Positions 9,739 through 31,356 of a stretch of 64,000 nt of DNA are shown here, piece after piece. The stretch is from contig JANYBS010000073.1 in assembly GCA_025360715.1 (NCBI GenBank), forward strand, positions 3,048-67,047, in the 5' to 3' direction. The position numbers and the translations under genes are program-made. The notes below the pieces were generated by a model. That model was not told the DNA's origin and made no database searches. It saw nothing but the letters and a program-made list of their open reading frames with translations. Origin of the DNA: Candidatus Eiseniibacteriota bacterium. GTDB taxonomy: Bacteria > Eisenbacteria > RBG-16-71-46. Position 1 is the first letter of the stretch. The number at the start of each line of letters is the position of its first letter.

Positions 9739-12700
9739 ATGCAAGCTCATCCCACGCGACTTCATCCGATCGCCCTGCTGCTGCTTGGCCTGCTGCTGGT
9801 ACCGCCGCTGCCCGCGTATGCTGCGCGACTTGCGTTACCTGTGGCCGTGGCCGGCGCTCCCGCGCCCGCGGCGCCGTACTTTGCGGGTGACCGCCTGCTC
9901 GTGCGCCTGCGCCCTGCGGCCTCGCAGTTCCTGAGCGCTCGCCGCGCGGGGCCCACGCGCTCGGGCTTGCAGATGCGCTCGGGCCTCAACTCGCTCGATG
10001 CGGTGGCGGCCTCTCTGGGCGGCGCCACATTCGAGCCGGAGTTCGTGGGCGAGCACGCGCCGGATCCCGCGAGCGGCGATACACTCGACTTCAGCGCGTT
10101 CATGATCGTGCACATCCCCGAGGGCGCCAGCTTGGAAGCCGCGCTCGAACGCTTCGCGGCCTCGCCCGATGTGATGAGCGCAGAGCCGATTCCCATCACG
10201 CGCACATCGGCGCTGCCCAACGACTCGCTCTTCGCGCAGCAGGTATGGCTGCACAAGGACATCCTGCCGCGAGTCGACAACCGCGTGCTCGATGCGTGGA
10301 GCGTCGAGCAAGGCGATACGAACATCGTGATCGGCGTGGTCGACACGGGCATCATCCCGTACCACCCGGATCTCGGTGGGATCACGGCAGGGCTCACGGG
10401 CAACATGTATGTGAACCGCGCCGAGGCGGGCGGCCTGCCGGGAGTGGACGACGACCACAATGGCTTCATCGATGACGTGGGCGGTTGGGACTTCGTCGCC
10501 AATGCGAGTGCCGCCAGTGCCGCAACCGGCGAGGATTGGCGCGACCAGGACAACGACCCGAACGACTTCGCGGGCCACGGCACCACGGTGGCCGGCGTGA
10601 TCGGCGCGTTGATCGACAACACCATCGGCATGGCGGGCATGGTGCCCAACGCGCGGCTCATGCCGCTGCGCATCGGCTGGCAGCCCGCCGGCGGCACCCC
10701 GCCCAATGGTGACGTGAGCATGGACTACGCCGCGCAGGCGATCCGCTACGCCACGCTCATGCATGTGCAGGTGCTCAACTGCTCGTTCAGCTCGTTGTTC
10801 CTTTCCAGCCTCGACGCCGCAGTCACTGCGGCCTCACGCGCGGGCACGGCGCTGGTGGTGGCATCGGGCAACGGCAATGACCCGGCATATCTGGGCCAGC
10901 GCGAAGATGTGATCGCCGTGGCCGGCGTGGACTCCAGCGACGTGATCTGGCCCGGCTCCGTGCTAGGCGCGTGGGTCGATCTTTCGGCCGATGCCACGGG
11001 TATCGTTTCCACGTTCCTCAAGCGCACGACGCCCGACTCTGTCGGCGCGCGCCAGCCGAGCTATCGCGGATTCCTCAACGGCACCTCTTACGCCGCGCCG
11101 CAGGTGGCGAGTGCGCTCGCGCTCATGCAGGCGCAGCGCCTGCATCAGGGCCGCGTGCCTTACACGGTCGCGGGCGCGGTCATGCGCCTGCGTGAGACCG
11201 CCGACGACATCAGCGCGCTCAACACGGGCACGGGCTATGGCGCGGGCCGGCTCGATGTGTATCGGGCGTTGACCGATCGCACGGGTTCGCTGGCGGTGCG
11301 CACGCGCTCGCGGCAGGTGGGACCGCCCGTGATCCTGCGCGAGAACACCGGGCGCTCGCGCATCCTGATCGCGGCGAACGACAAGACGCTGGTGGCTTAC
11401 GACGGAGCCTCGGGCGATACCCTCTGGCGCGTGGTGCTGCCGGCGGTACCGGCGGGCGACATGGCCGCAGCGCCGATCGGCGCGGGCGTGGTCGGCGTGT
11501 TCATCCCCACTGCGAACGGCCGCGTACTTGGCTATACCAGCGACGGTGTCGTGCTTGCGGGATGGCCGCAAGTGGGCACGTCGGGCCAGCAGATGACGGG
11601 CGGCGTTGCGCTCGGCGACCTCGACGGCGACGGTCTGCCCGAAGTGGTGTGCAGCGCGGTCGATGGCCGCGTCTTCGCATGGCATGCGAACGGCGCGCTG
11701 CTCGCGAACTTCCCGTTCGACATGGGCGTGATCGGCTCGGGCGTGCCGGCGCTGGGCGAGCTCGACGGCGTGCCCGGCGACGAGATCGCGATCGTTGGCG
11801 GTGACAATCAGGTGCACGTGATCACGCAAGCGGGCATCGAGGCGCCAGGCTGGCCCATCGCCGCGCCGCCGGGTACGCGCGCGCCGGTGATCGCGCGGCT
11901 CGGCCACGCGGGTCCGGTCGCGCTGATCGTGGGCGGCAATGGCAGCATCACCGCGTATCGCGGCGATGGCACATCGCTCTGGACGCGCGCGTTCACGGGC
12001 ACGCTGGGGCAGGACCTGGCGCTTGGCGACCTCGACGGCGATGGCGCCGACGAAGTCGTCTATGTGACGGGCGGGCCCACCACGGTGAGCGTGTGCGATT
12101 CGGCGGGTGCGGTTTTCAGCAGACAGAACTGGCCGCTCACACCCACGGGCACGCCAGCCGGCGCGCTTGCGATCGGACCGCTGCGCGCCGGGCACAACGC
12201 GGGCGTGTGCTGGCTGCAGTCCACCGGGCTGGTGGCGTATGACGACAGTGCGCAGGTGGTGCGGTGGGTGCCCAAGAGTGGGATCGCGGGCGTGGCTCCG
12301 GCGCTTGCCGATCTCGACGGCGACGGCGCGACCAAGATCGTGGCGGGCATCGCGCTCGCAGATTCCAACTTGTATGTGTACGACGCGGGCGCGGGCTCAT
12401 TCGATGCAGCCAAGCTCGGCTGGCCGACGCCGCGCGGCGACGAATCGCGGCGTGCGAATCACGCCTCGCCGCCGCTGCTCGGCGTGATCGATCGCATCCG
12501 GCCGGCGCGCGTGAACGATCTTGTGGCGCAATCGCTCACCACCACGAGCGCGCGAGTCACTTGGACCATGACGGGCGACGACAGCCTTGCCGGCGCGGCG
12601 AGCGCCACCGAGTTGCGCTACGCCGCTTTCCCGCTCGATGCGAGCAACTTCATCGCGGGGCAGCGGGTACTCGCAACGCCGGTGGGCGCGACTGGCACGC

Positions 12701-13452
12701 GCGATACCGTGCTGGTGAGCGCTCTCGCCGAAGGGCAGCTCTACTACTTCGCGCTGCGCGTGAGTGACGCGGCGGGTAATCTGAGCGCCGTTTCGAACGT
12801 GGACACGGTCGCCATGGCCGGGGTGGCGCCGGCAACGGTGACGGACCTGCGCGTGACGGTGCAGGCCGACACGGCGGCCGCCCTCACGTGGACCGCGGTG
12901 GGCGATGACGGCAATGTGGGCCGGCCGGCGAGCTACACGATCGCCGCAAGCCTGGCACCGGTCGCGCTGGCGACCTTCGACGCATCGGCGCGATTGCTCA
13001 CGGTGGCGGCCACAGTGGATGCCGGCGGAACCGAACACGCCACCCTGAGCGGCCTCACGCGCGGTGAGCGCTGGAACTTCGCGCTGGTCGCGACCGATCA
13101 CACGGCGACGCGATCAGGACTCTCGAACCCCGTGGCGCTGATCCTGCCTGTGGGCGGCGCGCTGCGCGGCCACCTGGGCGTGGCGGTCGCTCAGCACACG
13201 CGGCCGTCTGGCGTGCCGGTCGTGCTGGACTGGCAGGGCGCGGCGGAAGCCGTCGGCACTCCGCAGACGCTCTCGATCCACGATCTCTCGGGCCGCATCG
13301 TGCGGAGCCTGCTGCTTGGCACCGCGGCAGGCGGTTCGGTGAATTGGGACGGCCGGGATGGAGAGAGTCGTCTCCTCCCGGCCGGTCTATACTTTGCGCG
13401 CCTGAGCAGTGGTGGCTTCCACGCTCAGACGCGCATCGTACTGGTCCCTTGA
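9739..13452 (+). CDS. Secreted subtilisin-like S8 serine protease with FG-GAP-type repeats, FN3 domains and a T9SS type-A C-terminal sorting domain
   Basis: Signal peptide present. Catalytic triad blocks: VGVVDTGI (Asp), HGTTVAGVIG (His), GTSYAAPQVASALAL (Ser). Repeated LGDLDGDGxxEVV motifs. C-terminus ...LSIHDLSGRIVRSLLLG...LPAGLYFARL...RIVLVP is a Por_Secre_tail. Confidence 0.85.
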   Translation: MQAHPTRLHPIALLLLGLLLVPPLPAYAARLALPVAVAGAPAPAAPYFAGDRLLVRLRPAASQFLSARRAGPTRSGLQMRSGLNSLDAVAASLGGATFEPEFVGEHAPDPASGDTLDFSAFMIVHIPEGASLEAALERFAASPDVMSAEPIPITRTSALPNDSLFAQQVWLHKDILPRVDNRVLDAWSVEQGDTNIVIGVVDTGIIPYHPDLGGITAGLTGNMYVNRAEAGGLPGVDDDHNGFIDDVGGWDFVANASAASAATGEDWRDQDNDPNDFAGHGTTVAGVIGALIDNTIGMAGMVPNARLMPLRIGWQPAGGTPPNGDVSMDYAAQAIRYATLMHVQVLNCSFSSLFLSSLDAAVTAASRAGTALVVASGNGNDPAYLGQREDVIAVAGVDSSDVIWPGSVLGAWVDLSADATGIVSTFLKRTTPDSVGARQPSYRGFLNGTSYAAPQVASALALMQAQRLHQGRVPYTVAGAVMRLRETADDISALNTGTGYGAGRLDVYRALTDRTGSLAVRTRSRQVGPPVILRENTGRSRILIAANDKTLVAYDGASGDTLWRVVLPAVPAGDMAAAPIGAGVVGVFIPTANGRVLGYTSDGVVLAGWPQVGTSGQQMTGGVALGDLDGDGLPEVVCSAVDGRVFAWHANGALLANFPFDMGVIGSGVPALGELDGVPGDEIAIVGGDNQVHVITQAGIEAPGWPIAAPPGTRAPVIARLGHAGPVALIVGGNGSITAYRGDGTSLWTRAFTGTLGQDLALGDLDGDGADEVVYVTGGPTTVSVCDSAGAVFSRQNWPLTPTGTPAGALAIGPLRAGHNAGVCWLQSTGLVAYDDSAQVVRWVPKSGIAGVAPALADLDGDGATKIVAGIALADSNLYVYDAGAGSFDAAKLGWPTPRGDESRRANHASPPLLGVIDRIRPARVNDLVAQSLTTTSARVTWTMTGDDSLAGAASATELRYAAFPLDASNFIAGQRVLATPVGATGTRDTVLVSALAEGQLYYFALRVSDAAGNLSAVSNVDTVAMAGVAPATVTDLRVTVQADTAAALTWTAVGDDGNVGRPASYTIAASLAPVALATFDASARLLTVAATVDAGGTEHATLSGLTRGERWNFALVATDHTATRSGLSNPVALILPVGGALRGHLGVAVAQHTRPSGVPVVLDWQGAAEAVGTPQTLSIHDLSGRIVRSLLLGTAAGGSVNWDGRDGESRLLPAGLYFARLSSGGFHAQTRIVLVP

Positions 13453-13997: not shown

Positions 13998-14209
13998 GGT
14001 TGGCCTCCTTGTGTGACAACTGGATTCCGAGGGGGTGGGATGTAGGCCTCCAAGCCAGGGGCCCGTTTCGTTCTCCGGGGTGGGTAACAGCAACTGCGGT
14101 GCCAGACAGGGGGGCATGCGGCGTGCGGGACGTGAGTGACGCATTCGCAATCGTTAAGCCGGGTGTGCACAAGGCAACGCGCCCGGAATCCCTGGCCGCG
14201 ACATGCGCG

Positions 14210-16267
14210 ATGCAATGGCAACCCACACGGGCCATTGCGACCTGCTTGGCAACAGGGCTGGCTTTGGCGCTCTCTGCGGTGGCCGGGTTCGCCGCCCCAG
14301 CGCCGCCGCATGCCCCAGAGTTGGGCGCGGCGTTCTTGCGCGCGCCGCTCGCCGGCGCCTTGGTGATCACCGACGGCTTCGGCGCGGTGCGCAGCAACCA
14401 CTTCCACGCGGGCGTCGACCTATCGACCGGCGGCCGCGTGGGCGCCGATGTCTTTGCGCCGCTGCAATGCACGCTCGTGCGCGTGCGCGCGTCGGGCGCT
14501 GGGTACGGCCGCAGCCTCTATCTGATGTCGGGGGACGGTCGCATGATCGTGTTCGGCCACCTGGATGCCTTTGCGCCCGCTGTCGCGGCGTACGTGGACT
14601 CCGCACAGCGCGCGAGCGGCCGCTACGAGCAGGACCTGCAGCCCGCGCCCGGCCGGTTCGCTTTTGCGGCCGGTGAACGTGTGGCGTGGAGCGGCGAGAG
14701 CGGCGATGGGCCGCCGCACCTGCATATGGAAGTGCGCCATGGTGATTTCGCGTTGCATCCGCTGCTCGCGGGACTCCATATGGATGACCGCGATCCGCCC
14801 GTGCTTGATGCGCTCACGTTGGAGCCGCTCGAGGCGGGCTCGTTCGCGCAAGGGCTGGCGTCGCCGGTCACGCGCGCGCTTACGGGCATCGCGGCCGAGA
14901 CGCTCATCGTGCAGGGCCGCGTTCGCGCGGTCGTGCGCGCACACGATGTGATGGGTGCCGCCACGGCGCTGCCGCCGTGGTCGGTGCAGATGGACTACGC
15001 CGGGCAGACGACCACCGCAGCGTTCGACTCGATCTCGTGGGATGGCGAGATGTCGCAGCTGGGCATGGTGATCGACCGTGGCCGCATCGCGGGCGGGGAC
15101 GGAGTCATCCTCGACGCGCCCGAAGGCGTGCGCCCGCGATTCCTGAGTGGGGGAGATCCCGCTGCAGCAAGCAAGCGCTTGGGCGTGATCGCATTGCAAG
15201 CCGGCGAGCCCGCGCGTGCGCTCACGCTCACGGTGTGGGACGCCGCAGGCAACGCGGCCACGCGCAAGATCTACCTGCGTGGCCCGCGCGCGGGTGAGGG
15301 GCCGGACACCACGCAGGCACATGGCCTCAAGCCGCCGGTGGGCGCACCGCGCTGGACGTACGCGTCGTTGCCCGACAAGTGGGTGCGCGTGCGCGTGTCG
15401 AACGTGCCTGCCGGGCTCATGCAAGCGCGCATCGAGCGTGGCCGCGACAGCGACGAGGGCCACGCAGCCACGTGGGACGGCAGCGGCTGGAGCGCGCTCG
15501 TGCGCTGCAAGGGTATACCCGATGAAGATGGCTTCTGGTTCAAGGCGAAAGACAAGACCGGCAAGGCGTGGTGGACTCGCGGCAGCGTCACACTCTGGCC
15601 CGCGGGCGCCGATCTGCCGATCGACCAATCGCCACTCACGCGTGTGTCGCTGCTGCCCACGCGCGTGTTCGAAGGTGGCGTGGTCATGGGGGCGCTGCGC
15701 ACGGCTGTGAGCGCGTCCAAGGGCGAATGGCATGCGATGACGCCGGTGGTCTCGCTCGAGCCCTCGGACTGGCCGCTCGCACAGACCGCCACGGTCACGC
15801 TCAAGGCGCCCGACGGCATGGCGCTCGATCACCTGGTCGCCGCGCGGCGCAGCGGCGATGGCGAGACGTGGGAGTGGGCCAAGTCGACTTACGACGCCGC
15901 AACGCGCGTATTCACCATGGAGAGCGCGAGCTTCGGGCAGTTCGCGCTCATGCACGACACCACGCCGCCGCGCGTGACGCCGCTGACGCCGCCGCGCGTA
16001 GCGCTGGCCGGTGCGTACTCGCGCTGGGCGCTCACGGCCGCGGTGAGCGATGCCGGTAGTGGCATCGACCGCGAGACGAGCGCGTTCCAGGTGGACGGCG
16101 AACGCGTGCCCACCGAGTACGATGCCGAGGCGCACGTGCTGCGGTGGCGGGCCTTGCGGCCGCCGGCCGCCGGCCGCCACACCTACACCGTGGAAGTCGC
16201 CGACCGGGCGGGGAACCGCACGCGGAGCAGTGGTGTCTTTGTGCTAGATTCGGCGGCACATCACTAA
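14210..16267 (+). CDS. Secreted M23-family (LytM-type) metallopeptidase with a large C-terminal extension
   Basis: Signal peptide MQWQPTRAIATCLATGLALALSAVAGFA. The sequence contains HFHAGVDL and GESGDGPPHLHMEV (the HxxxD/HxH motifs of M23). Confidence 0.75.
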   Translation: MQWQPTRAIATCLATGLALALSAVAGFAAPAPPHAPELGAAFLRAPLAGALVITDGFGAVRSNHFHAGVDLSTGGRVGADVFAPLQCTLVRVRASGAGYGRSLYLMSGDGRMIVFGHLDAFAPAVAAYVDSAQRASGRYEQDLQPAPGRFAFAAGERVAWSGESGDGPPHLHMEVRHGDFALHPLLAGLHMDDRDPPVLDALTLEPLEAGSFAQGLASPVTRALTGIAAETLIVQGRVRAVVRAHDVMGAATALPPWSVQMDYAGQTTTAAFDSISWDGEMSQLGMVIDRGRIAGGDGVILDAPEGVRPRFLSGGDPAAASKRLGVIALQAGEPARALTLTVWDAAGNAATRKIYLRGPRAGEGPDTTQAHGLKPPVGAPRWTYASLPDKWVRVRVSNVPAGLMQARIERGRDSDEGHAATWDGSGWSALVRCKGIPDEDGFWFKAKDKTGKAWWTRGSVTLWPAGADLPIDQSPLTRVSLLPTRVFEGGVVMGALRTAVSASKGEWHAMTPVVSLEPSDWPLAQTATVTLKAPDGMALDHLVAARRSGDGETWEWAKSTYDAATRVFTMESASFGQFALMHDTTPPRVTPLTPPRVALAGAYSRWALTAAVSDAGSGIDRETSAFQVDGERVPTEYDAEAHVLRWRALRPPAAGRHTYTVEVADRAGNRTRSSGVFVLDSAAHH

Positions 16268-16338
16268 GCGCACGCTCCGGTTCTGGACCTGCGTCCGGTC
16301 GTCCCCACCGTCGCCACCGCCTCGCGCAGGACGCGCCC

Positions 16339-19300
16339 ATGAAGCATTCCGATTTCGTTCATCTGCATAACCATAGCGACTACTCGCTGCTGGATGGCGC
16401 TTCGTCCATCCAGGGCATGGTTCATCGTGCCGCCGAGCTGCAGATGCCCGCGCTCGCGCTCACGGACCATGGCGTCATGTTCGGTGCCATCGAGTTCTAT
16501 AACGAGGCGCGCAAGGCCGGCATCAAGCCCATCGTGGGCATGGAAGCCTATGTCACGCGCGGTGCGCGCAGCGCCCGCACTCGCGACGACAAGGCGCACC
16601 ATCTGGTGCTGCTCGCTCGCGACGAAGTGGGCTTCCATAACCTGATGCGGCTCTCGAGCCTGGCGTATCTCGAAGGCTTCTATTACAAGCCGCGCGTGGA
16701 CCACGAGATCCTGAGCCGTTTTTCACAAGGCATCCTCGCGCTGAGCGCGTGCCCGCAGGGCGAGATCGCCGCGGATCTCTTGGATGATCGCGACGAAGAG
16801 GCGCTCAAGACCGCGATGATGTATCGCGACATCTTCGGGCCCGAGAACTACTTCCTTGAGATCCAGAACCACGGCCTCGAGATCGAGACCAAGATCCGCG
16901 GCAAGGTCGAGCAGCTCGCACGCAAGACGGGTCTGCCGCTCGTGGCCACGAACGATTGCCACTACATCGGCAAGGACCACACCGAGGCGCAGGATGTACT
17001 GATCTGCATCCAGACCGGTAAGACGGTCAGCGAAGCGCAGCGCATGCGCGCACTGGCCGAGCTGCACTTCCGCACGCCCGACGAGATGCGCCTCGCGTTC
17101 CCGGATCATCCCGAAGCGATCGCGAACACGCTCGCGGTCGCGGAGCGTTGCAACCTGCAGCTGCAGCTGGGCAAGTTCCTGCTGCCGGAGTTCCCGTTGC
17201 CCGAAGGGTGGGCGAGCGCCGAGGAGTACTTTCGCGACCTGTCGTGGCGCGAACTCAAGGAGCGCTTCCGCGGGCAGGTGACCGACGAGAGGAAGACGCG
17301 CTTCGCGTACGAACTCGACGTGATCTGCAAGATGGGCTTCGCGTCGTACTTCTTGATCGTGCGCGACTTCATCAACTACGCGAAGTCGAACGGCATCGGC
17401 GTCGGCCCGGGCCGTGGCTCGGTGGCCGGTTCGCTGGTGGCCTTCGCGCTGCGCATCACGGATGTGGATCCGCTCAAGCATGGCCTCATCTTCGAGCGCT
17501 TCCTGAATCCGGAGCGCGTGACGATGCCCGATATCGATATCGATTTCGACGATCTTCGCCGCGGCGAAGTCATCGACTACGTGAAGCGCAAGTACGGCGA
17601 GACCAACGTCACGCAGATCATCACCTTCGGCACCATGGGCGCCAAGGGTGTGGTGCGTGACGTTGGCCGTGCGCTGGGCTTTCCGGTGGCCGAGGTCAAC
17701 TCGATCGCCAAGATGGTGCCCGATGGCCTGGGCATGACGCTCGAGCAGGCGCTGCAGGATTCGCCGGACTTGAAAGCGCTGCCCTCCAAGGGCGCTGACT
17801 ACGCGAAGCTGCTCAAGACCGCGCGCGTGCTCGAGGGCCTGGCGCGGCATGCGTCCACGCACGCGGCTGGTGTGCTGATCACGCCGGGGCCGCTGCTCGA
17901 CTATGTGCCGCTGTATCGCCAGAAAGACGGCTCGACCACGACCCAGTGGGATATGAAGTCGGTCGAGAAGGCGGGGCTGCTCAAGATGGACTTCCTCGGG
18001 CTGCGCACGCTGAGCGTGCTCGCCGAGGGCCTGCGCTTGGTGGAGAAGCACCACGGTCAGGTGATCGATTGGCAGGCGCTCGAGTTCGACGATCCGGCGG
18101 TCTACAAGCTCTTCCAGGAAGGCGACACGGTCGCGATCTTCCAGTTCGAGTCGCCGGGCATGCGCGACTACCTCAAGCGACTCAAGCCGACGGTGTTCGA
18201 GGACCTGGTCGCGATGAACGCGCTCTACCGCCCGGGCCCCATCGAGAACATCCCTTACTTCGTCGATTGCAAGCATGGCGTGAAGATCGCGAAGTATGAC
18301 CACGCCAAGCTCGAGCCGATCCTCAAGGGCACCTACGGCGTGTTCGTCTACCAGGAACAGGTCATGGGCGCCGCCCACGACCTGGCCGGCTTCTCGATGG
18401 CGCAAGCAGACGAGCTGCGCCGCGCCATGGGTAAGAAGAACGTCGAAGAGATGCAGAAGAAGCGCACCCAGTTCATCGAGGGCTGCGCGAAGAGCTCGAG
18501 GATCTCGGAGAAGGTCGCGGACAAGATCTTCACGACGATGGAGAAGTTCGCGGGCTACGGGTTCAACAAGTGTGTTTTAGAGAAAACGGAAATATTTAAT
18601 TTCGATACTGGTGAGAGAACCACGGTAGGCGAACTTTTCCGCAGCAAGCGCGAGTTCCATATTCACGCACTCGACAATCAATGGAAGTTGGTCCGACGCG
18701 CCGTGACCGACGTGGTGTGGAATGGGGTGAAGCCGGTCTTCGAGTTGAAGACCCTGCTCGGCCACCGCATCACCGCAACGTCCAATCACCCGTTGCGGAC
18801 ACTCGATGGATGGACCGACCTGGGAGACCTGAAGCCCGGGGACCACATCGCAGTCCCGCGCCGACTGGATATCGCCGGAGATCTGACCTGGCCGCGGCAT
18901 GAGATCATCACGCTCGCCGGATTGCTCGCTGAAGGCAATACCTGTCATCCTTCGACACTCTACTTCTACGGAAATGATCGCGTGCTCGTCGAAGATCTCC
19001 GCGACGCGGTGGCTTGCTTCCCGGATACGGTTGCGCGCATCCACGATCGCGGAGACGGTCGACTCGAGGTAGCGGCGAACCTCGGTGCCGGGTATGCCCG
19101 AGAGGGCGATGAAGCAGGCTGCGGGCTCGCTTCGCTGCACGGCAATCTCGCAGTAGTGATGGAAGCGTTGCCGCGCCGTTGCGGCGCATTCCAGTGGGCA
19201 CAACGTTTGGGCATCATCGGGAAAAAGGCGACCGAGAAGGTCGTGCCGCCGGACGTATTCCGATTGTCTGAAGCAGATCTGGAACTGTTTGTTGGACGGC

Positions 19301-21123
19301 TCTGGGCGGGCGACGGTTTCATCGCGAACCACGCATTGGCGATGCCTTACTACGCGACGAGTTCCGAGCGGCTAGCGAAGGACGTGCAGCAGCTCTTACT
19401 TCGATTGGGCATGATCAGCGGCCTCCAGACGAAGCGATTCAAGCATCGCGGGGAGATCCGGCTCGGCTACACGGTTCGCGTGCTTGGCGAGGATTCCGCC
19501 GAAACTTTCCTCCGACGCGTCGCACCAAATGCTTTGGGCCGGGACCATGCAATCGAGTTCCTTCGGGCTCATGTCCAAGAGACTCGGCGAGGGTTGAGTT
19601 CGCGGGATGTGATCCCCGGTGCTGTCCGAGCTTGGGTCGACCGCGAACGCCGTCTTCGCGGGCTAAGCTGGGCGGCGCTGTGCGAGCTTTCGGGTGTGTC
19701 CTTGTCGAATCTGGTCGCCGGCGTCGGGCATGGCGTGCGCCGCTCCATTATCCAGAAGCTCGCGCGCTTCTTCGCTTCGATGCCTCTCGAACGCCTCGCC
19801 ACTTCCGACGTCTTCTGGGACCGCGTGGTCTCCATCACGCCCATGGGCGAGCAGGACACGTACGACCTGACGGTCGAGAAGGACCACAACTTCGTCGCCG
19901 ACGGCCTGATCGTGCATAACTCGCACTCCGCGGCGTACGCGCTCGTGGCGTATCAGTGCGCGCACCTCAAGGCGCACTACCCGGCCGAGTTCATGGCCGC
20001 CACGATGACGAGCGAACTCAGCGATACCGCGCGCATCTTCACGCTCATCGAGGAGTCGCGCCGGATGGGCATCGAGGTGCGGCCGCCCGATGTGAACACG
20101 AGCGACCTGCGCTTCTCGATCGAAGACGGCGCCATTCGGATCGGCCTGGCGGCCATCCGCAATGTGGGCGAGGGTGCGGTCGAAGCGCTGATCGCCGCGC
20201 GCGAGGCGGATGGGCGATTCAAGGACGTCTTCGACATGGCGGGGCGTGTGGCGGCTGGCGTGTTCAACCGCCGCGTGCTCGAGAGCCTGATCTGCGCCGG
20301 CGCGTGCGACGCGCTGGGGCCGCGCGCGGCGATGTTCGCGGCGGCAGGCATGGCGCTCGATCATGCGGCGTCGGTGCATCGCGAGCGCGAGAGCGGGCAG
20401 TCATCGCTCTTCGGCGGCACCGAGGACGCGGGCCTCACCTCGGCGGCGCCGCCGTTGCCGCAGGTGCCCGAGTGGACGGGGCGCGAGCGCTCGGCCAAAG
20501 AGAAAGAGGGCCTGGGCTTCTACCTGAGCGATCATCCGCTCATGCACATCCGCGACGAGGTGGCCGCCGTGGCCACCCACACGCTGGCCGACGCGCTCGA
20601 ATCCGAAGATGGCACCGAGGTGCGCATCGTCGGTATCGTGTCCGAGAAGAAGCAGATCATGACCAAGAGCGGCAAGCTCATGGGCAAGGTGCACCTGGAA
20701 GACCTCTCTGGCCGCGCCGAGTGCACGCTGTTCTCCGACGCGTGGGAGGCGAGCAAGCCGCTGCTCGAGACCGACGCGATCGTGATCGGCATCGGCAAGG
20801 TCGAGAAGCGCGGCGATTTCGGGCCGCAGATACTTCTCAACGAAGTGCGGGGCTGGGAGCGCGGGGCGGGGTCTTTCCGGCCCATCCTGCAGATCGAGAT
20901 GCGCGCGGAGGAGCTCACCGAGGACCGCCTGCGCAGCATCGATGAAGTATTGGCGCTCTACCCGGGCGATTCCGATGTATATCTTCATATCGTGAGGCCG
21001 GATCATTCGCGGCTGGCCATGCGCTCCAAGCGCTGCCGGGTTGCGCAGGCGGAAGGCTTGCTCGAGGGCCTCAAGGAACGTGTTCCCAGCTGCCGTGCGC
21101 GCTGGGGAAAGGGGGGCGCATGA
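16339..21123 (+). CDS. dnaE: DNA polymerase III alpha subunit, interrupted by an in-frame intein
   Basis: PHP domain [20 protein letters not shown]; polymerase core; OB-fold region. 1594 aa including a 450-aa intein (about 1144 aa without it). accA follows immediately, as in E. coli. Confidence 0.95.
18571..19920 (+). mobile_element. Intein with LAGLIDADG homing-endonuclease domain, inserted in DnaE between GYGFNK and [12 protein letters not shown]
   Basis: Exteins flank it as ...FAGYGFNK[C VLEKTEI ... DGLIVHN][21 protein letters not shown], giving Cys1, a C-terminal His-Asn and a +1 Ser. Block B is TSNHP. Two LAGLIDADG-like blocks are present ([23 protein letters not shown]). Block F/G reads [21 protein letters not shown]. 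The first ~100 nt are markedly AT-richer than the surrounding sequence. Confidence 0.85.
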
Positions 21124-22082
21124 CAGTCTGGCTCGATTTCGAGAAGCCGGTGCTGGAACTGGAGCAGAAGATCCAGGAGCTCAAGGAAAGCGCGGCCGAG
21201 CGCGGCTTGGGCGGCGAAGACGAACTTGGCGAGCTCGAGCGTAAGGCCGAGGCCCTGCGCCGCGACATCTACGCGAACCTCACGCGCTACCAGCGTGTGC
21301 AGATCGCGCGGCACCCCAAACGGCCCTATACGCTCGATCATATCCAGCGCATCTTGACGGGCTTCGAGGAACTCCACGGCGATCGCCATTACGCCGACGA
21401 CCCGGCGATCGTCGCGGGGCTGGGGTGGCTCGATCAGCGGGCGGTCATGGTGATCGGCCAGCAGAAGGGCCGCGATACCAAAGAGAACCTGCTGCGGCGC
21501 TTCGGCATGCCGAATCCCGAGGGCTATCGCAAGGCGCTACGGTTGATGCAGCTCGCCGACCGCTTCCGCGTTCCGATCGTGACGCTCGTCGACACGCCCG
21601 GCGCGTACCCGGGTCTGGGCGCTGAGGAACGCGGCCAAGCCGAGGCGATCGCCGTGAACCTGCGCGAGATGGCAGTGCTGCGCGTTCCGATCGTGACCGT
21701 GGTGATCGGTGAGGGCGGCTCGGGTGGCGCGCTGGCGATCGCCGTGGCGGACCGCGTTCTCATGTTCGAGAACTCGGTCTACTCGGTGATCTCGCCCGAG
21801 GGCTGCGCGTCGATCCTCTGGCGTGACGGCAAGCAGGGCGCCAAAGCGGCCGAAGCCCTGCGCCTGGCGGCCCCCGACCTCATGTCGCTCAAGATCGTCG
21901 ACGGCGTCCTGCCGGAGCCGGTCGGAGGCGCGCACCGGGACTGGGACCTGGCAGCGGCCACCCTCAAGGGTGCACTGACCCAGAACCTTGACGAACTGGG
22001 CGGTGTAAGGCCAGAGGAGCTCATCACCCAGCGGGCAGCGCGCTTTCGGAAGATCGGGGTATTCAGCGACTCGGGCGCTTGA
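21120..22082 (+). CDS. accA: Acetyl-CoA carboxylase carboxyltransferase alpha subunit
   Basis: 320 aa. Contains ...[25 protein letters not shown]...[12 protein letters not shown]..., the canonical AccA sequence. The start overlaps the dnaE stop (ATGA). Confidence 0.9.
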
Positions 22083-22311: not shown

Positions 22312-22479
22312 ATGGCACTGAGTCCCGAGCTTCTCAACATCCTGGTCTGCCCCGCATGCAAGGGTGATCTTGCCTACGACACCACCGCGCAGACGCTCAC
22401 GTGCAATGCCTGCCGGCTCAAGTACAAGGTCGTCGACGATATCCCGGTCATGCTCCCCGAAGAGGCGGAGAAGTTCTGA
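22312..22479 (+). CDS. Trm112/UPF0434-family small zinc-ribbon protein
   Basis: 55 aa: [60 protein letters not shown] sits 6 nt upstream of the ATG. The track ORF 22093.. is over-extended. Confidence 0.6.
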
Positions 22480-22502
22480 CCCCCTCGGGTCGGGCGACCG
22501 CG

Positions 22503-25500
22503 ATGACGGACCGAACCCACTCGCGCACCCGTAGCGCACGCGCAGCCATGTCCCGCGCGGTCCTTGGCACGGCCATGGCGGCGGTTCTCTTCGCAGGCGC
22601 GATGCTCGCCATGCCGGCCACCGCGGCGCCCGCGCTTGTCCATCTGGCGCCGGCCTCACCGGGCGCGGTGCGCTTCACGATCAACGTGCCTGTCCCGAAG
22701 CTCGTACGCCTCGAAGCGGGCGACGCGACCGCGCGGCTGGACCTGGATGGTTTCCTACTCGAAGGCAAGCCGGGCGCGCCGGCGATGCCGGTTCGTGTCC
22801 TGCTCGTCGCAGTGCCGCCGCTGGGCGCAGTGCGCGTGTCGGGCGTCGCGTCCGAACTCCGCATCGATGAAGGTGTCCTGTTGGCGTCCACTGCAACGCG
22901 CGATGCGGCGGGCGAGGTGCACCAGATGCGCTCGAGCGCAGCCTATGGCGCCAAGGGCAGCGCGCAGCCCGAGGCGGCGAAGCTGCTCGATGTGACGTGG
23001 GTGCGCAATCAGCGCGTGGCGCGCATCGCGATCATGCCGTCGGCCTATGAGCCCTCGGCGCGCCGGCTCACGACGGCCGCGCGGATCGATGTCGAGGTCC
23101 AGGTCCAGCCCATGGACGTGCTGGGGCCGCCGGTCGAGACGAGCGATCCCTACGAGCCGGTCTACGAATCCGCGCTCGTGAACTACGCGCAGGGCAAGAA
23201 CTGGCGCCGGCCGGCCACCTCTGTGCTCGCCGCTGCGGCGCGGCGGATGGGCATGAGCGTCGCAGGCGTCACGGAGCTGGCGGCGCCGCCGGACACGAGC
23301 GTCTTCGTGGGCCGGCAGTGGGCGCGACTCGCCATCACGCAGGCGGGCTTCTATTCCGTGAACTATTCCAACCTGCGCCTGACGGCACTCATCAATCAGG
23401 GCAGCTTCGCGTTCGATTCGCTGCGGCTCTTCACGCTGCCCGGCTACCCGCAGTTGCCCGAGAACACGTATTGCGATTCCTGTGATCTCAAGGAAGTCGC
23501 GATCGGCGTGATCGACGTGGGCAACGACGGCCTGTTTTCGGTGAACGACGACACGTTCTACTTCTTCGCGCAGGGTCCGAGCGGCTGGGCGGACGACTAC
23601 AACCTCGCGCTCGCGGATACGCTCTACCTGAATCATCCGTATGAAACCCGCAACATCTACTACCTTACCGTCGCAACGGGACCGCTGCCGGTCGCGGGCG
23701 CGCCCAGACGCATCGGCCGCCGCGACGCCACGCCTCAGGTGGCGAGCGGCGCGACGCCGGTGACCACGTTCGCCGATCGCGCGCACTTCGAACAGGACGT
23801 CGAGTACTGGCCGGACGCGAATCCACGCGGCAGCTCGCTCTTCTGGGAGAAATGGTACTGGCGCAGTCTGAGCAACACGGCCACGGGCAATTCGTTCACG
23901 ACCACATTCGCGTTACCCGGCGCCGACACGCTGCAGGCTGCGCGGCTGCGCCTGCGGCAGTGGGGCCTGACGGACAACGTGATCTTCAACGGCTGCGGTA
24001 ACACGACACCGGACCATCTTCTCGACGTGCGGCTGAACGCTTTCGGCCTGCGACGCGGTGCCTGGAACAGCTTCATCGCGGCGTACGGTGGTCAGTACAC
24101 GTTCGATACCACGGGCGTATTCCTGAACCGCGTGAGCAACTCGCTCCAGCTGACGGTGCCGGTGGTCTCCGCGCCGGATTGTCCGAACCGCTCCGACCGC
24201 AGCGCGCTTGCGTGGTTCGACCTCTACTACCAGCGCTTCTTCCAGCCACAGGACGATGTGTTGCGCTTCCGCGGCCCTGCCACCGCGGGGCTCTACCGCT
24301 ACGATGTCGGACCGTTCAAGTCGAGCGCGCAGCCGCGGCTCTTCGATATCACCGATCCGCTCTCGCCGTCCGAACTCACCGCGGCGGCCACGGCGTTCGG
24401 GCCGGTCGCGGGCGGGTTCCAGCTGTCGATCGAAGACACGCAGAGCGTCCAGCATCGTTTCCTGGTCGTGCCCGATTCGTTCATCACGGCCGTGCACCTG
24501 CCGGTGACAGCGATCGACGATGCGCCCTTCACGAGCTTGGATAACCTGCGCAGCCGCACGAACGGCGCGGACTACCTGGTCATCTACTACGACGGTTTCG
24601 CCGCTGCCGCCACGGCGCTGGGAGATGCGCGCAAGCTCAAGCTGCCGCTCACCGACAAGCCGGCGCCCTACGTGACCAAGACGATCCCGATCTCGGCGCT
24701 GTACGACCAGTTCTCGGGCGGCCGTACCGACCCTGCCGCGATCCGCAACTTCCTGCGCGCCGCTTACTTCAATTGGTCGCTGCGTCCGCGCTTCGTGACG
24801 TTCATCGGCGATGCGTCTTACGACTACAAGAACATCACCGGCCGCGCGCCGAGCGGCCAGCCCGGTTCGCTGTTGCCCACCTATGAGAACGGTTTCGACG
24901 ATCATTTCAACGTGCTGCGCCAGTTCGCCACCGACGACTGGCTGCTCAATGTGAATGACGCGAACTCGTTCGTCCCGGATTTCTACGGCGGGCGCCTGCC
25001 GGCCGACGATGCGGCCTCGGCGCTCAAGGTGGTCAATGGCAAGATCCTCGCCTACGAGAATGCAGCGCCGGTGGGCGAGTACCGCAACCGAGTCATGCTG
25101 ATCGCGGACGACGACCAGCAGGGCGAGAGCCCCGACCAGCTTGCGTGGACGCACGTACAGCAGACCACCGATCTGGATACCACGAGCACGCCCGATCACC
25201 TGGACCGCACGTACGTGTACTTGCATACCTATCCGTCGGGCACGGGCAACACCAAGCCGGGTGCGCGCGCCGACATCAAGAACACCATCAACAACGGCGT
25301 CGCGCTGTTCAACTACGTGGGCCATGGCAGCCCGTTCAAGATCAGCGACGAGAGCGTGTTCATCGATTCCGACGCGGGCACGCTCACGAATGGCCTGCGC
25401 ATGCCGCTCTTTGTGGCGGCCTCCTGCGACGTGGGCAAGTTCAACGATCCGACGGTGCAGAGCCTGGGCGAGCGTCTGGTCATGGCTTCTGACGCCGGCG

Positions 25501-26888
25501 CGATCGGCGTCATCTCGGCCACCGAGCAGGCGTTCAGTTCGGACAACAGCCTGCTCAATCGCTTCCTCTACAAGCAGATGTTCCGGCGCGACGCGGTGGT
25601 GGTGGGTGCCGACACGCTCGCGGGCTTCGGCCAATACCATATGGCGGTCTCCGCCGCGCTGCTGTCGGCCAAGATCAGCGCGCCCGGCACGAACGAGATC
25701 AACAACTCCAAGTATCAATACATGGGTGATGCCGCGACGCGGCTCAACGCCCCGCGCCTGTGGGCCGACATCCAGCTCACCGACGTGGCTGGGGTGCCGA
25801 TCACTGAGCTCAAGCGCGGCCAGACGGTCGTGGTGAGTGGTCGCGTGCTCGATGCGCCCGGCGGCACGTTCACGCCATTTGACGGCGTGGCGAGCCTGTT
25901 CGTGGAGGATTCGGCGCCCATCGACAACACCGGGCTCAATCCCGATCCGAACTTCCTGTCGCACTACTATTCGGTGAACTACCGCTTCAGGGCGGGTCCG
26001 ATCTATCACGGCGACGTCACCTGCACGAACGGTACATTCGAAGGGCGCTTCGTCGTACCGGCCGATGCGACCACCGGTGCGTACGGTCGTGTGCGCGCGT
26101 ACCTCGACGGCCGTACGCTCAACGCGAAGCGCGACGACGATGGTGCGGGCAGCGTCAAGGTGCAGGTTTCGAGCGCGCCGATCGTGACCAGCGACGCCGA
26201 AGGGCCGCGCATCACGCTGTCGTTCGTGGGCGGCGCCACGTCGGTGCGCCCCGATGCCCAGTTGCGCATCGACCTCTTCGACCAGAGCGGCATCATGACG
26301 ACCGGGCATTCGCTGCAGAACTCGATCGTGGTGACCATCGACGACAACACCACCTCGCGCGTGGACGTGACGGGATCGTTCCGCTATGCGGCGGATTCGT
26401 ACCAGTCCGGCACGGCCAGCTTCGCGCTGCCCAGCCTGAGCGCGGGCCACCACCGTATCCGCGTCTCGGCGGCCGACAACCTGGCCTCAGGCATCAACGC
26501 TTCGGCCCATCGAAACAGCTCGACGCTCGAGTTCGACGTCATCAGCACGCCGACGCTTAATGTGGCGCGCACCTATCTCTTCCCGAACCCCACCCGCTCG
26601 AGCGGGCCGGGGGCGGGCGGGACGTTCATCGTCGACGCACCGGGCGACTCGGTGAACACGCTCATCCGGCTGTATACGGTCTCGGGAAAGCTGATCCGGA
26701 CGCTCAAGTCGTTCGGAGCGCTGGGACAGGTCCAGATCCCGTGGGATGGCCGGGATGCCGAAGGGGATGCCCTGGCCAATGGCACCTATCTCTATAAGGT
26801 GTATGTGAATGGCCGACTTGCCGATGGAACCAGCAGCGCCAGCCAGAAGGCTATCGCCGAAGGCCGTGTCGTCATCGTTCACCATTGA
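22503..26888 (+). CDS. porU: PorU-like C25 (gingipain-family) peptidase with T9SS C-terminal domain (T9SS C-terminal signal peptidase candidate)
   Basis: Signal peptide MTDRTHSRTRSARAAMSRAVLGTAMAAVLFAGAMLAMPATA. C25 catalytic blocks YVGHGSP (His) and FVAASCDVGKF (Cys). C-terminal Por_Secre_tail ...YLFPNPTRS...RLYTVSGKLIRTL...GTYLYKVYVNG. Immediately followed by an OM-barrel gene, matching the porU-porV synteny of Bacteroidota. Confidence 0.75.
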   Translation: MTDRTHSRTRSARAAMSRAVLGTAMAAVLFAGAMLAMPATAAPALVHLAPASPGAVRFTINVPVPKLVRLEAGDATARLDLDGFLLEGKPGAPAMPVRVLLVAVPPLGAVRVSGVASELRIDEGVLLASTATRDAAGEVHQMRSSAAYGAKGSAQPEAAKLLDVTWVRNQRVARIAIMPSAYEPSARRLTTAARIDVEVQVQPMDVLGPPVETSDPYEPVYESALVNYAQGKNWRRPATSVLAAAARRMGMSVAGVTELAAPPDTSVFVGRQWARLAITQAGFYSVNYSNLRLTALINQGSFAFDSLRLFTLPGYPQLPENTYCDSCDLKEVAIGVIDVGNDGLFSVNDDTFYFFAQGPSGWADDYNLALADTLYLNHPYETRNIYYLTVATGPLPVAGAPRRIGRRDATPQVASGATPVTTFADRAHFEQDVEYWPDANPRGSSLFWEKWYWRSLSNTATGNSFTTTFALPGADTLQAARLRLRQWGLTDNVIFNGCGNTTPDHLLDVRLNAFGLRRGAWNSFIAAYGGQYTFDTTGVFLNRVSNSLQLTVPVVSAPDCPNRSDRSALAWFDLYYQRFFQPQDDVLRFRGPATAGLYRYDVGPFKSSAQPRLFDITDPLSPSELTAAATAFGPVAGGFQLSIEDTQSVQHRFLVVPDSFITAVHLPVTAIDDAPFTSLDNLRSRTNGADYLVIYYDGFAAAATALGDARKLKLPLTDKPAPYVTKTIPISALYDQFSGGRTDPAAIRNFLRAAYFNWSLRPRFVTFIGDASYDYKNITGRAPSGQPGSLLPTYENGFDDHFNVLRQFATDDWLLNVNDANSFVPDFYGGRLPADDAASALKVVNGKILAYENAAPVGEYRNRVMLIADDDQQGESPDQLAWTHVQQTTDLDTTSTPDHLDRTYVYLHTYPSGTGNTKPGARADIKNTINNGVALFNYVGHGSPFKISDESVFIDSDAGTLTNGLRMPLFVAASCDVGKFNDPTVQSLGERLVMASDAGAIGVISATEQAFSSDNSLLNRFLYKQMFRRDAVVVGADTLAGFGQYHMAVSAALLSAKISAPGTNEINNSKYQYMGDAATRLNAPRLWADIQLTDVAGVPITELKRGQTVVVSGRVLDAPGGTFTPFDGVASLFVEDSAPIDNTGLNPDPNFLSHYYSVNYRFRAGPIYHGDVTCTNGTFEGRFVVPADATTGAYGRVRAYLDGRTLNAKRDDDGAGSVKVQVSSAPIVTSDAEGPRITLSFVGGATSVRPDAQLRIDLFDQSGIMTTGHSLQNSIVVTIDDNTTSRVDVTGSFRYAADSYQSGTASFALPSLSAGHHRIRVSAADNLASGINASAHRNSSTLEFDVISTPTLNVARTYLFPNPTRSSGPGAGGTFIVDAPGDSVNTLIRLYTVSGKLIRTLKSFGALGQVQIPWDGRDAEGDALANGTYLYKVYVNGRLADGTSSASQKAIAEGRVVIVHH

Positions 26889-26995
26889 AACACCCACTCG
26901 AGAGTTTTTTTCGGGAGAAATCCAAAGCGTCGCGGTGTAGTACCCCGGGCAACGTCTCCCGCTCGCAGGGTTCGCGATCTCTCAGAGGAGTATCT

Positions 26996-27946
26996 ATGCG
27001 TTTGTCTACCACGTTGATCCTGAGCGTTTTACTGGGGCTCTGCCTCGCTGCCTCCGCGCAGGCGCAGGGCACCGGCCGCTCGCTGGATATCCAGCCTGGC
27101 GCACGCCAGAACGGTCTGGGAGCGGCGGGAGTGGCTCTTGCCGAGGATGCCAGCGGCGTGACCTGGTGGAACCCCGCAGGACTCGGGTTCGTGAACAAGG
27201 CTGCCGTCGAACTCAGCTATGCCCAGTTGGTTCCGGGCCTCGCGAGCGACGTGAGCTACAACTACGCGACGTTCGTGAAGCCGATGCAGGGCTGGGGCGC
27301 TTTCGGCGTCGGCCTTGTGTTCCTTTCCTATGGTACGAGCGAGCAGACCGACAACAGCGGCAACGTCATCGGCAGCTTCACGTCGAACGAGCTCTCGCCG
27401 GCGCTGTACTACGGCACGAAGCTGCTGCCCGAGCTTTCGATCGGCGCATCGCTCAAGTACATCCGCATCCAGCTCGCGCCTTCGCAGCAGTCCGGCGTCG
27501 GCTCCACGTTCGGACTCGACGTCGGTGCGCTCTATCGTATCCCGGCCGCGCGCCTGAACCTGGGGATGAACGTACAGAACCTGGGTCCGGCCGTGACGTT
27601 CCTGAACGAAGACCAGAAGAGCCCGCTCTCGCGCAACCTCAAGGTCGGCGCGGCGTGGGAGGCGACCTCCTCCAAGGAGTTCCGCCTCATGGTCGTGGGT
27701 GACTTCAACCAGTCGCTCGTCACCAACCAGTTCCGCACTTACAACGGCGGACTCGAACTTCGTTACACGGACCAGATCGCCGGTCGAGTCGGTTACTACG
27801 ACGATCCTCTGGGCGACATCAAGGACCTCACCTACGGCATCGGTGTGGGTTGGAAGGGCCTGAGCCTGGACTACGCCAGTATCCCGCAGGCCAAGGGTTC
27901 CGGGCTGCCGAACGTGACCAAGATCACCATCGGCTATCGCTTCTGA
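26996..27946 (+). CDS. porV: PorV/LptO-like (or PorP/SprF-like) outer-membrane beta-barrel protein
   Basis: ATG at 26996 with GAGGAG upstream. Signal peptide MRLSTTLILSVLLGLCLAASAQA. Alternating amphipathic beta-strand pattern. The C-terminal residue is Phe (...KITIGYRF). Position directly downstream of porU. At 316 aa it is shorter than classical PorV (~390 aa), so the family assignment is tentative. Confidence 0.5.
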   Translation: MRLSTTLILSVLLGLCLAASAQAQGTGRSLDIQPGARQNGLGAAGVALAEDASGVTWWNPAGLGFVNKAAVELSYAQLVPGLASDVSYNYATFVKPMQGWGAFGVGLVFLSYGTSEQTDNSGNVIGSFTSNELSPALYYGTKLLPELSIGASLKYIRIQLAPSQQSGVGSTFGLDVGALYRIPAARLNLGMNVQNLGPAVTFLNEDQKSPLSRNLKVGAAWEATSSKEFRLMVVGDFNQSLVTNQFRTYNGGLELRYTDQIAGRVGYYDDPLGDIKDLTYGIGVGWKGLSLDYASIPQAKGSGLPNVTKITIGYRF

Positions 27947-27954
27947 TCGAATCC

Positions 27955-30900: not shown

Positions 30901-31356
30901 AACGGTAGTCTTGAGCTGGTCGCTCCGGACCGCGATAGCCTTCTCTATGCCTATTCACTTCCCATCCTGGCCAATGACGCCGTCGCCACCTCGTGGACGA
31001 TGGTCGGCGGCGACCCGGGGCGCACGAGCGCCCTGCTCGAGTCGCGCACGCCGTCGCCGGCGGCGGCTTCGCCGGGGCCGCTCGTGCGCGCGAGCTTCAA
31101 GGCGTTCCCGAACCCCGCGCGTCGCAAGCCCGTGGAGTTCGCGTTCACGCTGAGCGAGCCCGCGCAGGTGGAGTTCCGCATCGTCGATTCGTCGGGCCAC
31201 GAAGTGGCGTCGTTCTCGCGCCATGGCGAGCGCGCCGAGAACCTTGTGGTCTGGGATCCTGGCGCGCTGCCGGCCGGCTTGTACGTGGCGCGCGTCAAGT
31301 TCTCGGGCCCGGGCGGCTCGCAAGTGGCCATCCAGCCCGTGGGACTCCTGCGGTGA
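27955..31356 (+). CDS. Secreted M6/InhA-like zinc metalloprotease with FG-GAP/beta-propeller-like repeats and a T9SS C-terminal domain
   Basis: Probable GTG start at 27955 (VINLATLLSTSRRSSKVVSLAVLALLAGAAVA signal). The sequence contains HENGHNMFGFLDVYN (HExxH...D.Y as in M6). VCWAGG/DGDG repeats are present. C-terminus FKAFPNPARRKPVEF...FRIVDSSGHEV...LPAGLYVARVKF is a Por_Secre_tail. Confidence 0.65.
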   Translation: MINLATLLSTSRRSSKVVSLAVLALLAGAAVAHPDALTVTPLNTQAGLASARDKGIIARGAPMNASERTVLEARLARQRAFLPVQRQLFSPGRAIDRSLFGNRRVGWQPPIGASRDPRQPMRMQRFGTTIAPPDTIHLAIIRIDFLNDRGGAKSSGTGRFNLDAADTVDNPVDRPPHNRAFYVSQGEALRRYYDQQSYGRVVVDIDVWPTQQDSAFHLTDMADLGPWSFGQGVFQAAVKMMRGMFFAADSQSTALGNRIPWDHYDRYCLVHAGSDLQSDIKQDSKEDIPSFTLFISDTDRVIFPDSTTRPIDRASFIPETINQDGYYGAINGVMAHENGHNMFGFLDVYNVETGYPVVGYWSLMDSGNLVGSRLQLKDGSEIFATGLLPPSIDPLQRDFIGGGLRFAEPAWGETLSIANNERNNLMYKVPLSSDEYLLLENRYLSPAAAVQLEADSITHVVLGPKSPDRYEYDALLPGSGILVWHIDASVIPFETSLRPNPDFSLNANPARLADEVIQASGLDDLGDVSSPYLLGSPLDPYQRSINPSLSDSTQPNLIPNQKTRPHVRIDFLDDTGATQHFVANRTWAQPGWPIVASFPPGGPLPLAIDMDGDRNLEVCWAGGRAGRADSAAVFAVRSNGTGLLGTSLELTSLPQRPRPLIAAVVTGDPDLGTGPSLVAATTYHYGAADTTGGRVYLIDHNGAQSFGWPVKLPSPASTSPVIAGAWPNIFVFVGAEDGRVYVLDRTGAVVATSNTSLGSAITGRLAFWQGGPTPNTEVAGAKNLIAAGCATGLVSTFAFNASALTQEGQMQVTSSTTFTPDFLWLRMNGTGAQAAADCAAGGPVLAVHHADKIWAFCPSGAALPGWGHSLGDTVVAGLGAGDPDGDGFPEVLYQTVTSQVGFLNRDGYPSPGWPKAGTTEHLRTLSPALALDVDHDGRSEVVALDGSGVIAALDARGKTPAGWPLATGAGASGSGVAADLDRNGSLELVAPDRDSLLYAYSLPILANDAVATSWTMVGGDPGRTSALLESRTPSPAAASPGPLVRASFKAFPNPARRKPVEFAFTLSEPAQVEFRIVDSSGHEVASFSRHGERAENLVVWDPGALPAGLYVARVKFSGPGGSQVAIQPVGLLR

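Follow-up and report, generated by a model that had tools for sequence, protein, structure and literature searches.

The fingers domain of the α subunit of DNA polymerase III (Pol III α, DnaE) has been described as a hot spot for intein insertion (Novikova et al. 2016, PMC4760082). The insertion sites of this protein are named a to g in that work, in a text that gives no flanking sequences; sites a to d and g lie within 75 residues, and site a is the one occupied by the split inteins of cyanobacteria. In the current analysis we have considered a stretch of 64,000 nucleotides from Candidatus Eiseniibacteriota bacterium (GenBank assembly GCA_025360715.1, contig JANYBS010000073.1, positions 3,048 to 67,047), hereafter referred to as the window, which encodes a dnaE gene with an in-frame insert of 450 codons. 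We hold with high confidence that the insert is a genuine class 1 intein with a nested two-motif LAGLIDADG endonuclease, situated in the fingers domain of DnaE at the known site FNK/SH (a slash within a motif marks the splice junction throughout).

Flanking sequences of described DnaE inteins are available in Table S1 of Apgar et al. 2012 (PMC3359363), which was extracted from InBase in 2009. The Gob DnaE intein of Gemmata obscuriglobus (762-1207) is listed there with the cassette FNK/SHTA, and the DnaE-2 inteins of Thermus thermophilus (Tth-HB27 and Tth-HB8, 1239-1661) are listed with FNK/SHAA. Other DnaE sites in the same table are LRR/SMGK (Tth DnaE-1), LRR/CMGK (Ter DnaE-2) and GVL/CYQE (Ter DnaE-1). 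A full-text literature search for the motif strings around the FNK/SH junction gave no match, and the site has been identified instead from this table. The site is not new: as the Tth DnaE-2 / Gob DnaE allele it has been catalogued since at least 2009, which answers the question, raised along with the original prediction of this intein, of whether it was already on record.

The split Npu DnaE intein has AEY/CFNK as its native exteins (PMC3759424), which puts the window site, GFNK/SH, 4 residues downstream of the split-intein site. It had been placed 3 residues downstream and regarded as a distinct allele; the two sites are indeed distinct and it is the offset that has to be corrected. The insert had also been located near the active-site region of the polymerase. 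The interrupted motif is conserved as described, but the junction aligns with K758/S759 of E. coli Pol III α (2hqa, 2hnh, 5fku), that is, with the fingers domain and not with the catalytic residues of the palm.

The Tth DnaE-2 inteins resemble the window intein in host protein, in the FNK/SH site, in the Ser+1 nucleophile and in being full-length, with 423 residues against 450. They differ in belonging to another host phylum, and Thermus has a second intein (DnaE-1 at LRR/S) that is absent from the window dnaE. The Gob DnaE intein, of 446 residues, occupies the same site. Homology of the intein bodies is deduced in both cases through related copies, which for Thermus are those of Deinococcus, Deinococcales and Trueperaceae (L022, L028, L030, L034, L038), with 38-41% identity to the window intein. 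For Gemmata it is the copy of a Gemmataceae metagenome-assembled genome (MAG) (L003, flank SHTAAYAQIGYQ), which is 58% identical and among the closest relatives. Between the Gemmataceae exteins and those of the window, identity is no more than 42% and 34%, and the host phylum is therefore a different one (Planctomycetota as against Eisenbacteria-like).

The split DnaE inteins of cyanobacteria (Ssp, Npu; site a) share with the window intein the host protein, the fingers-domain loop and the Hint fold, and give weak sequence and fold matches to it. They differ in the AEY/CFNK site, in being encoded by two genes and spliced in trans, in their Cys+1 and in being devoid of an endonuclease, whereas the window intein is contiguous and has a Ser+1 and an endonuclease. 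The DnaB inteins (Ssp and Npu DnaB, Mtu DnaB; PRK07773) are its closest sequence relatives outside DnaE. The DnaB entries 1mi8 and 4o1r of the PDB have 33-38% identity to it over about 97 columns (Foldseek), and full-length DnaB inteins, at 28-36% identity, have the endonuclease and the helical accessory region in common with it; the host protein and the sites (GK/C...HN/T or S, and RESG/C...HN/SIEQD) are different. TliVMA (7qss), PI-PfuI (1dq3), PI-TkoII (2cw7) and PI-SceI (1vde, 1lws) have, like the window intein, a Hint domain split by a pseudo-dimeric LAGLIDADG endonuclease, with template modelling (TM) scores of up to 0.72, but their sequence identity to it is 10-18% and they come from archaeal or yeast hosts and from other host genes.

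The extent of the insert, its 450 residues and the length of 1594 residues for DnaE against 1144 without the insert, as given in the original prediction, have all been reproduced exactly. The insert begins with CVLEKTEIF, finishes with LIVHN and is flanked by ...FAGYGFNK and SHSAAYAL..., so that the interruption of the conserved GYGFNK/SHSAAY motif can be read directly at the junction. The reading frame across the intein is open, and the exteins are intact and conserved. Conceptual excision of the 450 residues joins 744 and 400 residues into a DnaE of 1144 residues, with the spliced junction ...TACGGGTTCAACAAG/TCGCACTCCGCGGCG..., which aligns gap-free with the NCBIfam model PRK05673 and with Pol III α of E. 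coli or Taq. The unspliced product matches PRK05673 with 1353 bits in two stretches separated by the insert; the Pfam domains PHP, DNA_pol3_alpha and DNA_pol3_finger are found upstream of the insert, and HHH_6 and an OB-fold downstream.

The insert itself is assigned to the Pfam families Intein_splicing (E-value 7e-24, with 84.8 bits where the cutoff is 35.8) and LAGLIDADG_3 (E-value 4e-11, above the gathering score), and the NCBIfam models intein_Nterm and intein_Cterm both exceed their cutoffs. The top NCBIfam match is the intein-containing DnaB model PRK07773 (266 bits). Sequence matches in the PDB comprise the Ssp and Npu DnaB mini-inteins (best 1mi8, E-value 9e-25) and the Mtu RecA intein. 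The original description of a full-length LAGLIDADG intein with Cys1, His-Asn, Ser+1, blocks A, B, F and G and two endonuclease motifs is borne out alike by Pfam, NCBIfam, the PDB matches, the alignment and the structural model (Table 1).

The AlphaFold2 model of the intein, built on an alignment of 8 sequences, has a predicted local distance difference test score (pLDDT) of 87.9 and a predicted TM score of 0.87, with pLDDT below 50 only at residues 176-199 and 340-343. The first matches of this model in a Foldseek search of the PDB are full-length inteins that bear an endonuclease, namely TliVMA (7qss; E-value 3e-21, TM 0.69/0.72), PI-PfuI, PI-TkoII and PI-SceI. These are followed by mini-inteins, including those of RecA and DnaB, at a root mean square deviation (rmsd) of about 1 Å, and then by the free-standing LAGLIDADG enzymes I-DmoI and I-Tsp061I. 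The insert is thus predicted to contain a Hint fold and, from the matches of the model to PI-PfuI, TliVMA, PI-SceI, I-DmoI and I-Tsp061I, a pseudo-dimeric LAGLIDADG fold of the order α-β-β-α-β-β-α. The helices modelled in the small region that follows the endonuclease core span residues 349-362, 367-374, 391-401 and 404-410. This helical region is present in most of the full-length homologues and deleted in forms of 381-392 residues (P0005, P0009); from the model it is probably an extra module for contacts with DNA.

Conservation of residues has been analysed in an alignment of 62 inteins from the same DnaE site, which consists of the window intein and those of 61 genome loci. Cys1, Thr70 and His73 of block B, Asp432 of block F, and His449 and Asn450 of block G are invariant in all 62. 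The acidic residues of the LAGLIDADG motifs, E121 (61 of 62) and D248 (62 of 62), are both intact in the window copy, and its Ser+1 is a conserved serine of the host protein. At the highly conserved columns the window intein deviates in 3 of 82, which equals the family median. A diverged, disordered loop specific to the window copy (residues 176-199, positions 19096-19167) is found where the family has TGxDxRFxKGxxPWN, and coincides with the longer of the two stretches of low pLDDT. A compensated frameshift was considered as the origin of this loop and rejected, as the family consensus is absent from the other reading frames. The window intein also has a deletion of 3 residues near residue 386, in the helical accessory region.

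Variation at Cys1 or Asn450, or a region without the Hint fold, had been named in advance as signs that the insert is some other lineage-specific insertion of DnaE; both residues have turned out to be invariant, and the fold is found by Pfam, by the PDB matches and in the predicted structure. Such a domain insertion, or a disabled pseudogene copy of dnaE, in either case with no functional intein, might still be imagined, given that only 64 kb of the genome are visible. It is effectively refuted by the matches to family models and PDB entries, which together with the predicted fold identify a Hint domain plus LAGLIDADG, by the Foldseek matches and by the presence of every splicing residue; the open frame, the intact exteins and the preserved arrangement of dnaE and accA with overlapping stop and start likewise speak against it, and its probability is negligible.

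For the intein at the FNK/SH site, the conserved residues and the established chemistry of inteins suggest how splicing would proceed. The precursor of 1594 residues would be translated whole, and an N-S acyl shift at Cys1, with the help of Thr70 and His73 of block B, would be followed by attack of the Ser+1 hydroxyl on the thioester to give a branched ester. Cyclisation of Asn450, aided by His449 and by Asp432 of block F, would then release the intein, and an O-N shift would leave a native Lys-Ser bond in a DnaE of 1144 residues with an intact GYGFNKSHS motif. It may reasonably be inferred that splicing is obligatory for viability, on the assumption, which is beyond the reach of 64 kb, that this dnaE is the sole replicative polymerase gene and that the rest of the genome has no second dnaE or polC. 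Equipped with two LAGLIDADG helices and with E121 and D248 as acids, the excised intein would be expected to cleave intein-less dnaE alleles at the junction sequence, and repair of the cut allele would copy the intein in (homing).

The distribution of this intein has been examined by a protein search and by a genome scan. The DnaE matches in the protein database are all fragments, none of them longer than about 790 residues, and complete genes were therefore examined through genome loci. About 50 DnaE fragments were found at 36-59% identity, and all those that span a junction show YGFNK/C or HN/SH followed by S, T or A. The genome scan covered one genome per species and found 518 relatives, and the detailed figures are from the best 80 of these 518. 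Among these 80, 62 intact inteins and one degenerate copy (L032) are DnaE or DnaE2 inteins at the FNK/SH position, and hence at least 62 species-representative genomes carry it. Four of the loci counted (L022, L034, L038, L051) have offset tblastn start coordinates, and L022, L034 and L038 have been confirmed by reading their junctions. The rest of the 80 loci comprise DnaB inteins at two sites and one intein in an unidentified P-loop protein.

The hosts at the FNK/SH site include Eisenbacteria, Gemmataceae, Planctomycetes, Desulfobulbaceae, Bacteroidota, Gammaproteobacteria (including the cultured Allochromatium humboldtianum), Polyangiaceae, Omnitrophota, Chloroflexota, Deinococcus (including the cultured D. 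arenicola), Trueperaceae, Gemmatimonadaceae, Saccharibacteria and other lineages of the candidate phyla radiation (CPR). The window intein is 31-59% identical to the 61 other inteins at the site over the full length. Related inteins with about 31-36% identity have also been identified in a dCTP deaminase (P0068), a RadA/Sms protein (P0093) and a P-loop protein (L075; GEPGTAK/C...HN/SWLSE), and the host range of this intein clade therefore extends beyond DnaE and DnaB.

In a Deinococcales MAG (JAWKPU010000003.1, L022:4001-5956), dnaE has two inteins separated by about 50 residues: ADLLRR/C...HN/SMGKKK is occupied by a mini-intein and YGFNK/C...HN/SHAAAY by a full-length one. This arrangement matches the pair DnaE-1 (LRR/S) and DnaE-2 (FNK/S) of Thermus in InBase.

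Another class of proteins with homologous inteins at the homologous position (YGFPE/C ... HN/SHAASFALL) is that of the DnaE2/ImuC-like error-prone polymerases (L042, L046, L047, L048, L052, L066; P0019, P0104, P0107, P0118). These inteins occur in full-length forms of about 423 residues and as mini forms of 141 residues, and their sequences suggest homing across paralogues.

Mini-inteins at the FNK/SH site, in which the endonuclease is partly or wholly deleted, have lengths of 230 (P0037), 213 (P0072), 169 (P0075) and 141 residues (P0104, P0107), and they represent stages of endonuclease decay. In a Dormibacteraeota MAG (CAVQVY010000053.1, L032:4001-5348) the intein copy is interrupted by stop codons, and the frame is lost at its C-terminal end (...LCCERPGRPQ/SHSVAY); this is either a decaying copy or an indel of a long-read assembly.

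The similarity of the inteins is decoupled from the kinship of their hosts. The closest hosts by extein identity are mostly Eisenbacteria MAGs (L008, with 79% and 63%, followed by L010, L001, L011 and L002), and their inteins are only 51-59% identical to that of the window (54% for L008). Similarity of the exteins and of accA to Eisenbacteria MAGs is the basis on which the window has been assigned to an Eisenbacteria-like lineage. The inteins of Gemmataceae, Desulfobulbaceae and Bacteroidota are 56-58% identical to it, with exteins at 42-51% (N-extein) and 34-38% (C-extein). The Spearman correlation of intein identity with that of the N-extein is 0.34 and falls to 0.16 (not significant) once the close relatives are removed; with that of the C-extein it is 0.01. 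The GC content at third codon positions (GC3) is 0.711 in the intein, as against 0.875 in the N-extein and 0.870 in the C-extein. The most AT-rich part of the intein is its first 105 codons (GC 0.565).

Empty alleles have been searched for with the 300-residue spliced junction as query. Relatives with a contiguous GYGFN[KR]SHSAAYAL and no intein (P0121, P0122, P0124-P0128, P0138) are 66-81% identical to it, and intein-plus relatives, when spliced, are 71-76% identical over the same region. An intein-less dnaE followed by accA has also been identified (L081), with the junction ...GGTTTCAATAAG/TCACATTCGGCT..., in which 76 of 90 nucleotides equal the spliced junction of the window. The order dnaE-accA, which was used as a marker of orthology, is preserved in the intein-plus relatives L008, L010, L011, L001 and L002 as well as in L081, and the accA of L081 is 81.6% identical to that of the window, against 81.9% for the intein-plus L008. 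The survey for intein-minus dnaE alleles that was proposed along with the original prediction has thus found them in equally close relatives.

Decoupled similarity, the GC3 difference, empty alleles, the pair formed with L081 and the mini-inteins together show a classic homing cycle, in which invasion and fixation are followed by decay of the endonuclease and by loss. Taken at the level of sequence, they argue that the endonuclease of the family is active now or was so recently. The element most probably arrived horizontally in the Eisenbacteria-like lineage, where it is polymorphic, with occupied and empty alleles.

A number of observations weigh against this picture of a mobile and active element. 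No recent transfer event can be pinpointed, since the nearest homologue is only 59% identical. No phage vector with the intein in dnaE was found by tblastn in 50,697 phage records, where the matches are distant inteins in terminase or helicase genes (21-28% over the full length, and one partial match of 40% in a DnaB-like helicase gene). The diverged loop and the 3-residue deletion could lower the binding of DNA, going by the model, and conservation of E121 and D248 would be necessary for cleavage and not sufficient for it.

These features of the window copy, together with the known mini-intein derivatives at the same site and the limited identity of the inteins of the closest hosts, could also be those of a vertically inherited relic that splices, has lost the activity of its endonuclease and is on the way to a mini-intein. 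We consider such a relic possible and on the whole unlikely. The two catalytic acids and nearly all the family-conserved columns are intact, the structural model is highly confident over the endonuclease domain, GC3 has not been raised to the level of the host, and similarity decoupled from host kinship favours ongoing mobility of the family. From its sequence, the endonuclease of the window copy is somewhat more probably functional than defunct.

That inteins accumulate in the fingers of Pol III α has been read as a hint of functional adaptation (Novikova et al. 2016, PMC4760082), and conditional splicing has been reported for mycobacterial DnaB inteins (PMC7360933), which belong to the nearest relatives of the window intein outside DnaE. 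The intein could be retained as a post-translational switch or throttle on maturation of the polymerase, with splicing dependent on redox state, metal or temperature, and would then be of benefit to the host and more than selfish. We regard this as improbable: no sensor is indicated by the sequence, Cys is absent at +1 and from the flanking N-extein (GYGFNK) where a redox trap would need it, and the intein is missing from equally close relatives. The retained endonuclease and the patchy spread across phyla fit a selfish element.

Table 1. Features of the intein-containing dnaE gene and of the adjacent accA (positions are those of the window; aa, amino acids, numbered within the intein unless stated otherwise)
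Feature	Position	Strand	Remarks
dnaE precursor gene (DNA polymerase III α, one intein)	16339..21123	+	1594 aa plus stop; NCBIfam PRK05673, Pfam
N-extein coding region	16339..18570	+	744 aa; last residue aligns with E. coli Pol III α K758
Intein, class 1 (Cys1 ... His449-Asn450)	18571..19920	+	450 aa, DnaE residues 745-1194
Hint splicing domain, N-terminal part (about aa 1-105)	18571..18885	+	block A Cys1, block B T70-x-x-H73; aligns to Ssp DnaB and Mtu RecA mini-inteins; Foldseek rmsd about 1 Å over about 97 columns
LAGLIDADG homing-endonuclease domain (about aa 106-340)	18886..19590	+	Pfam LAGLIDADG_3 and model matches; boundaries approximate, from secondary structure of the model
LAGLIDADG motif 1, TLAGLLAEG (aa 114-122), catalytic acid E121	18910..18936	+	alignment
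LAGLIDADG motif 2, VGRLWAGDG (aa 241-249), catalytic acid D248	19291..19317	+	alignment
Small helical (helix-turn-helix-like) accessory region (about aa 341-410)	19591..19800	+	between endonuclease core and C-terminal splicing segment
Hint splicing domain, C-terminal part (aa 411-450)	19801..19920	+	block F D432, block G His449-Asn450; NCBIfam intein_Cterm
C-extein coding region	19921..21123	+	400 aa plus stop; starts with the Ser+1 nucleophile (SHSAAYAL...), aligned with E. coli S759
accA (context, outside the element)	21120..22082	+	Pfam ACCA, E-value 2.5e-142

The dnaE gene is contained in an open reading frame (ORF) of the forward strand at 16144..21123. The ATG at 16339 is taken as the likely start, since the relatives align from residue 1 over the full-length N-extein and the PHP domain begins at residue 8; no clear Shine-Dalgarno sequence is visible before it. 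The mechanical ORF has 65 codons upstream of this ATG (16144-16338) and overlaps the end of an ORF of 755 residues similar to M23 peptidases (14000-16267). The ATG of accA overlaps the stop codon of dnaE (ATGA, 21120-21123), which suggests that the two genes may be translationally coupled.

Downstream of these genes (22401-27946), the window encodes a PorU-like C25 peptidase of 1495 residues, which has a propeptide and, at its C-terminus, a FlgD_ig domain; a homologue of PorV comes next. As components of type IX secretion, these genes are consistent with a host of the Eisenbacteria or of the FCB (Fibrobacterota-Chlorobiota-Bacteroidota) group. Further secreted proteins of very large size, in which peptidase and FG-GAP domains occur, are encoded at 9739-13452 and 27850-31356, the former also ending in a FlgD_ig domain. 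A profile derived from the 62 homologous inteins matched only dnaE in the 64-kb window, and no other intein was found there.

The correct annotation of the dnaE product is that of an intein-containing precursor with a mature polymerase of 1144 residues. The FNK/SH family could yield Ser+1-dependent inteins for protein engineering, for which many equivalent sequences are already public. With the window intein, otherwise an ordinary example, an Eisenbacteria-like lineage joins the hosts of a widely dispersed allele, and the FNK/SH site displays the full homing cycle, with empty alleles, full-length inteins and mini-inteins.

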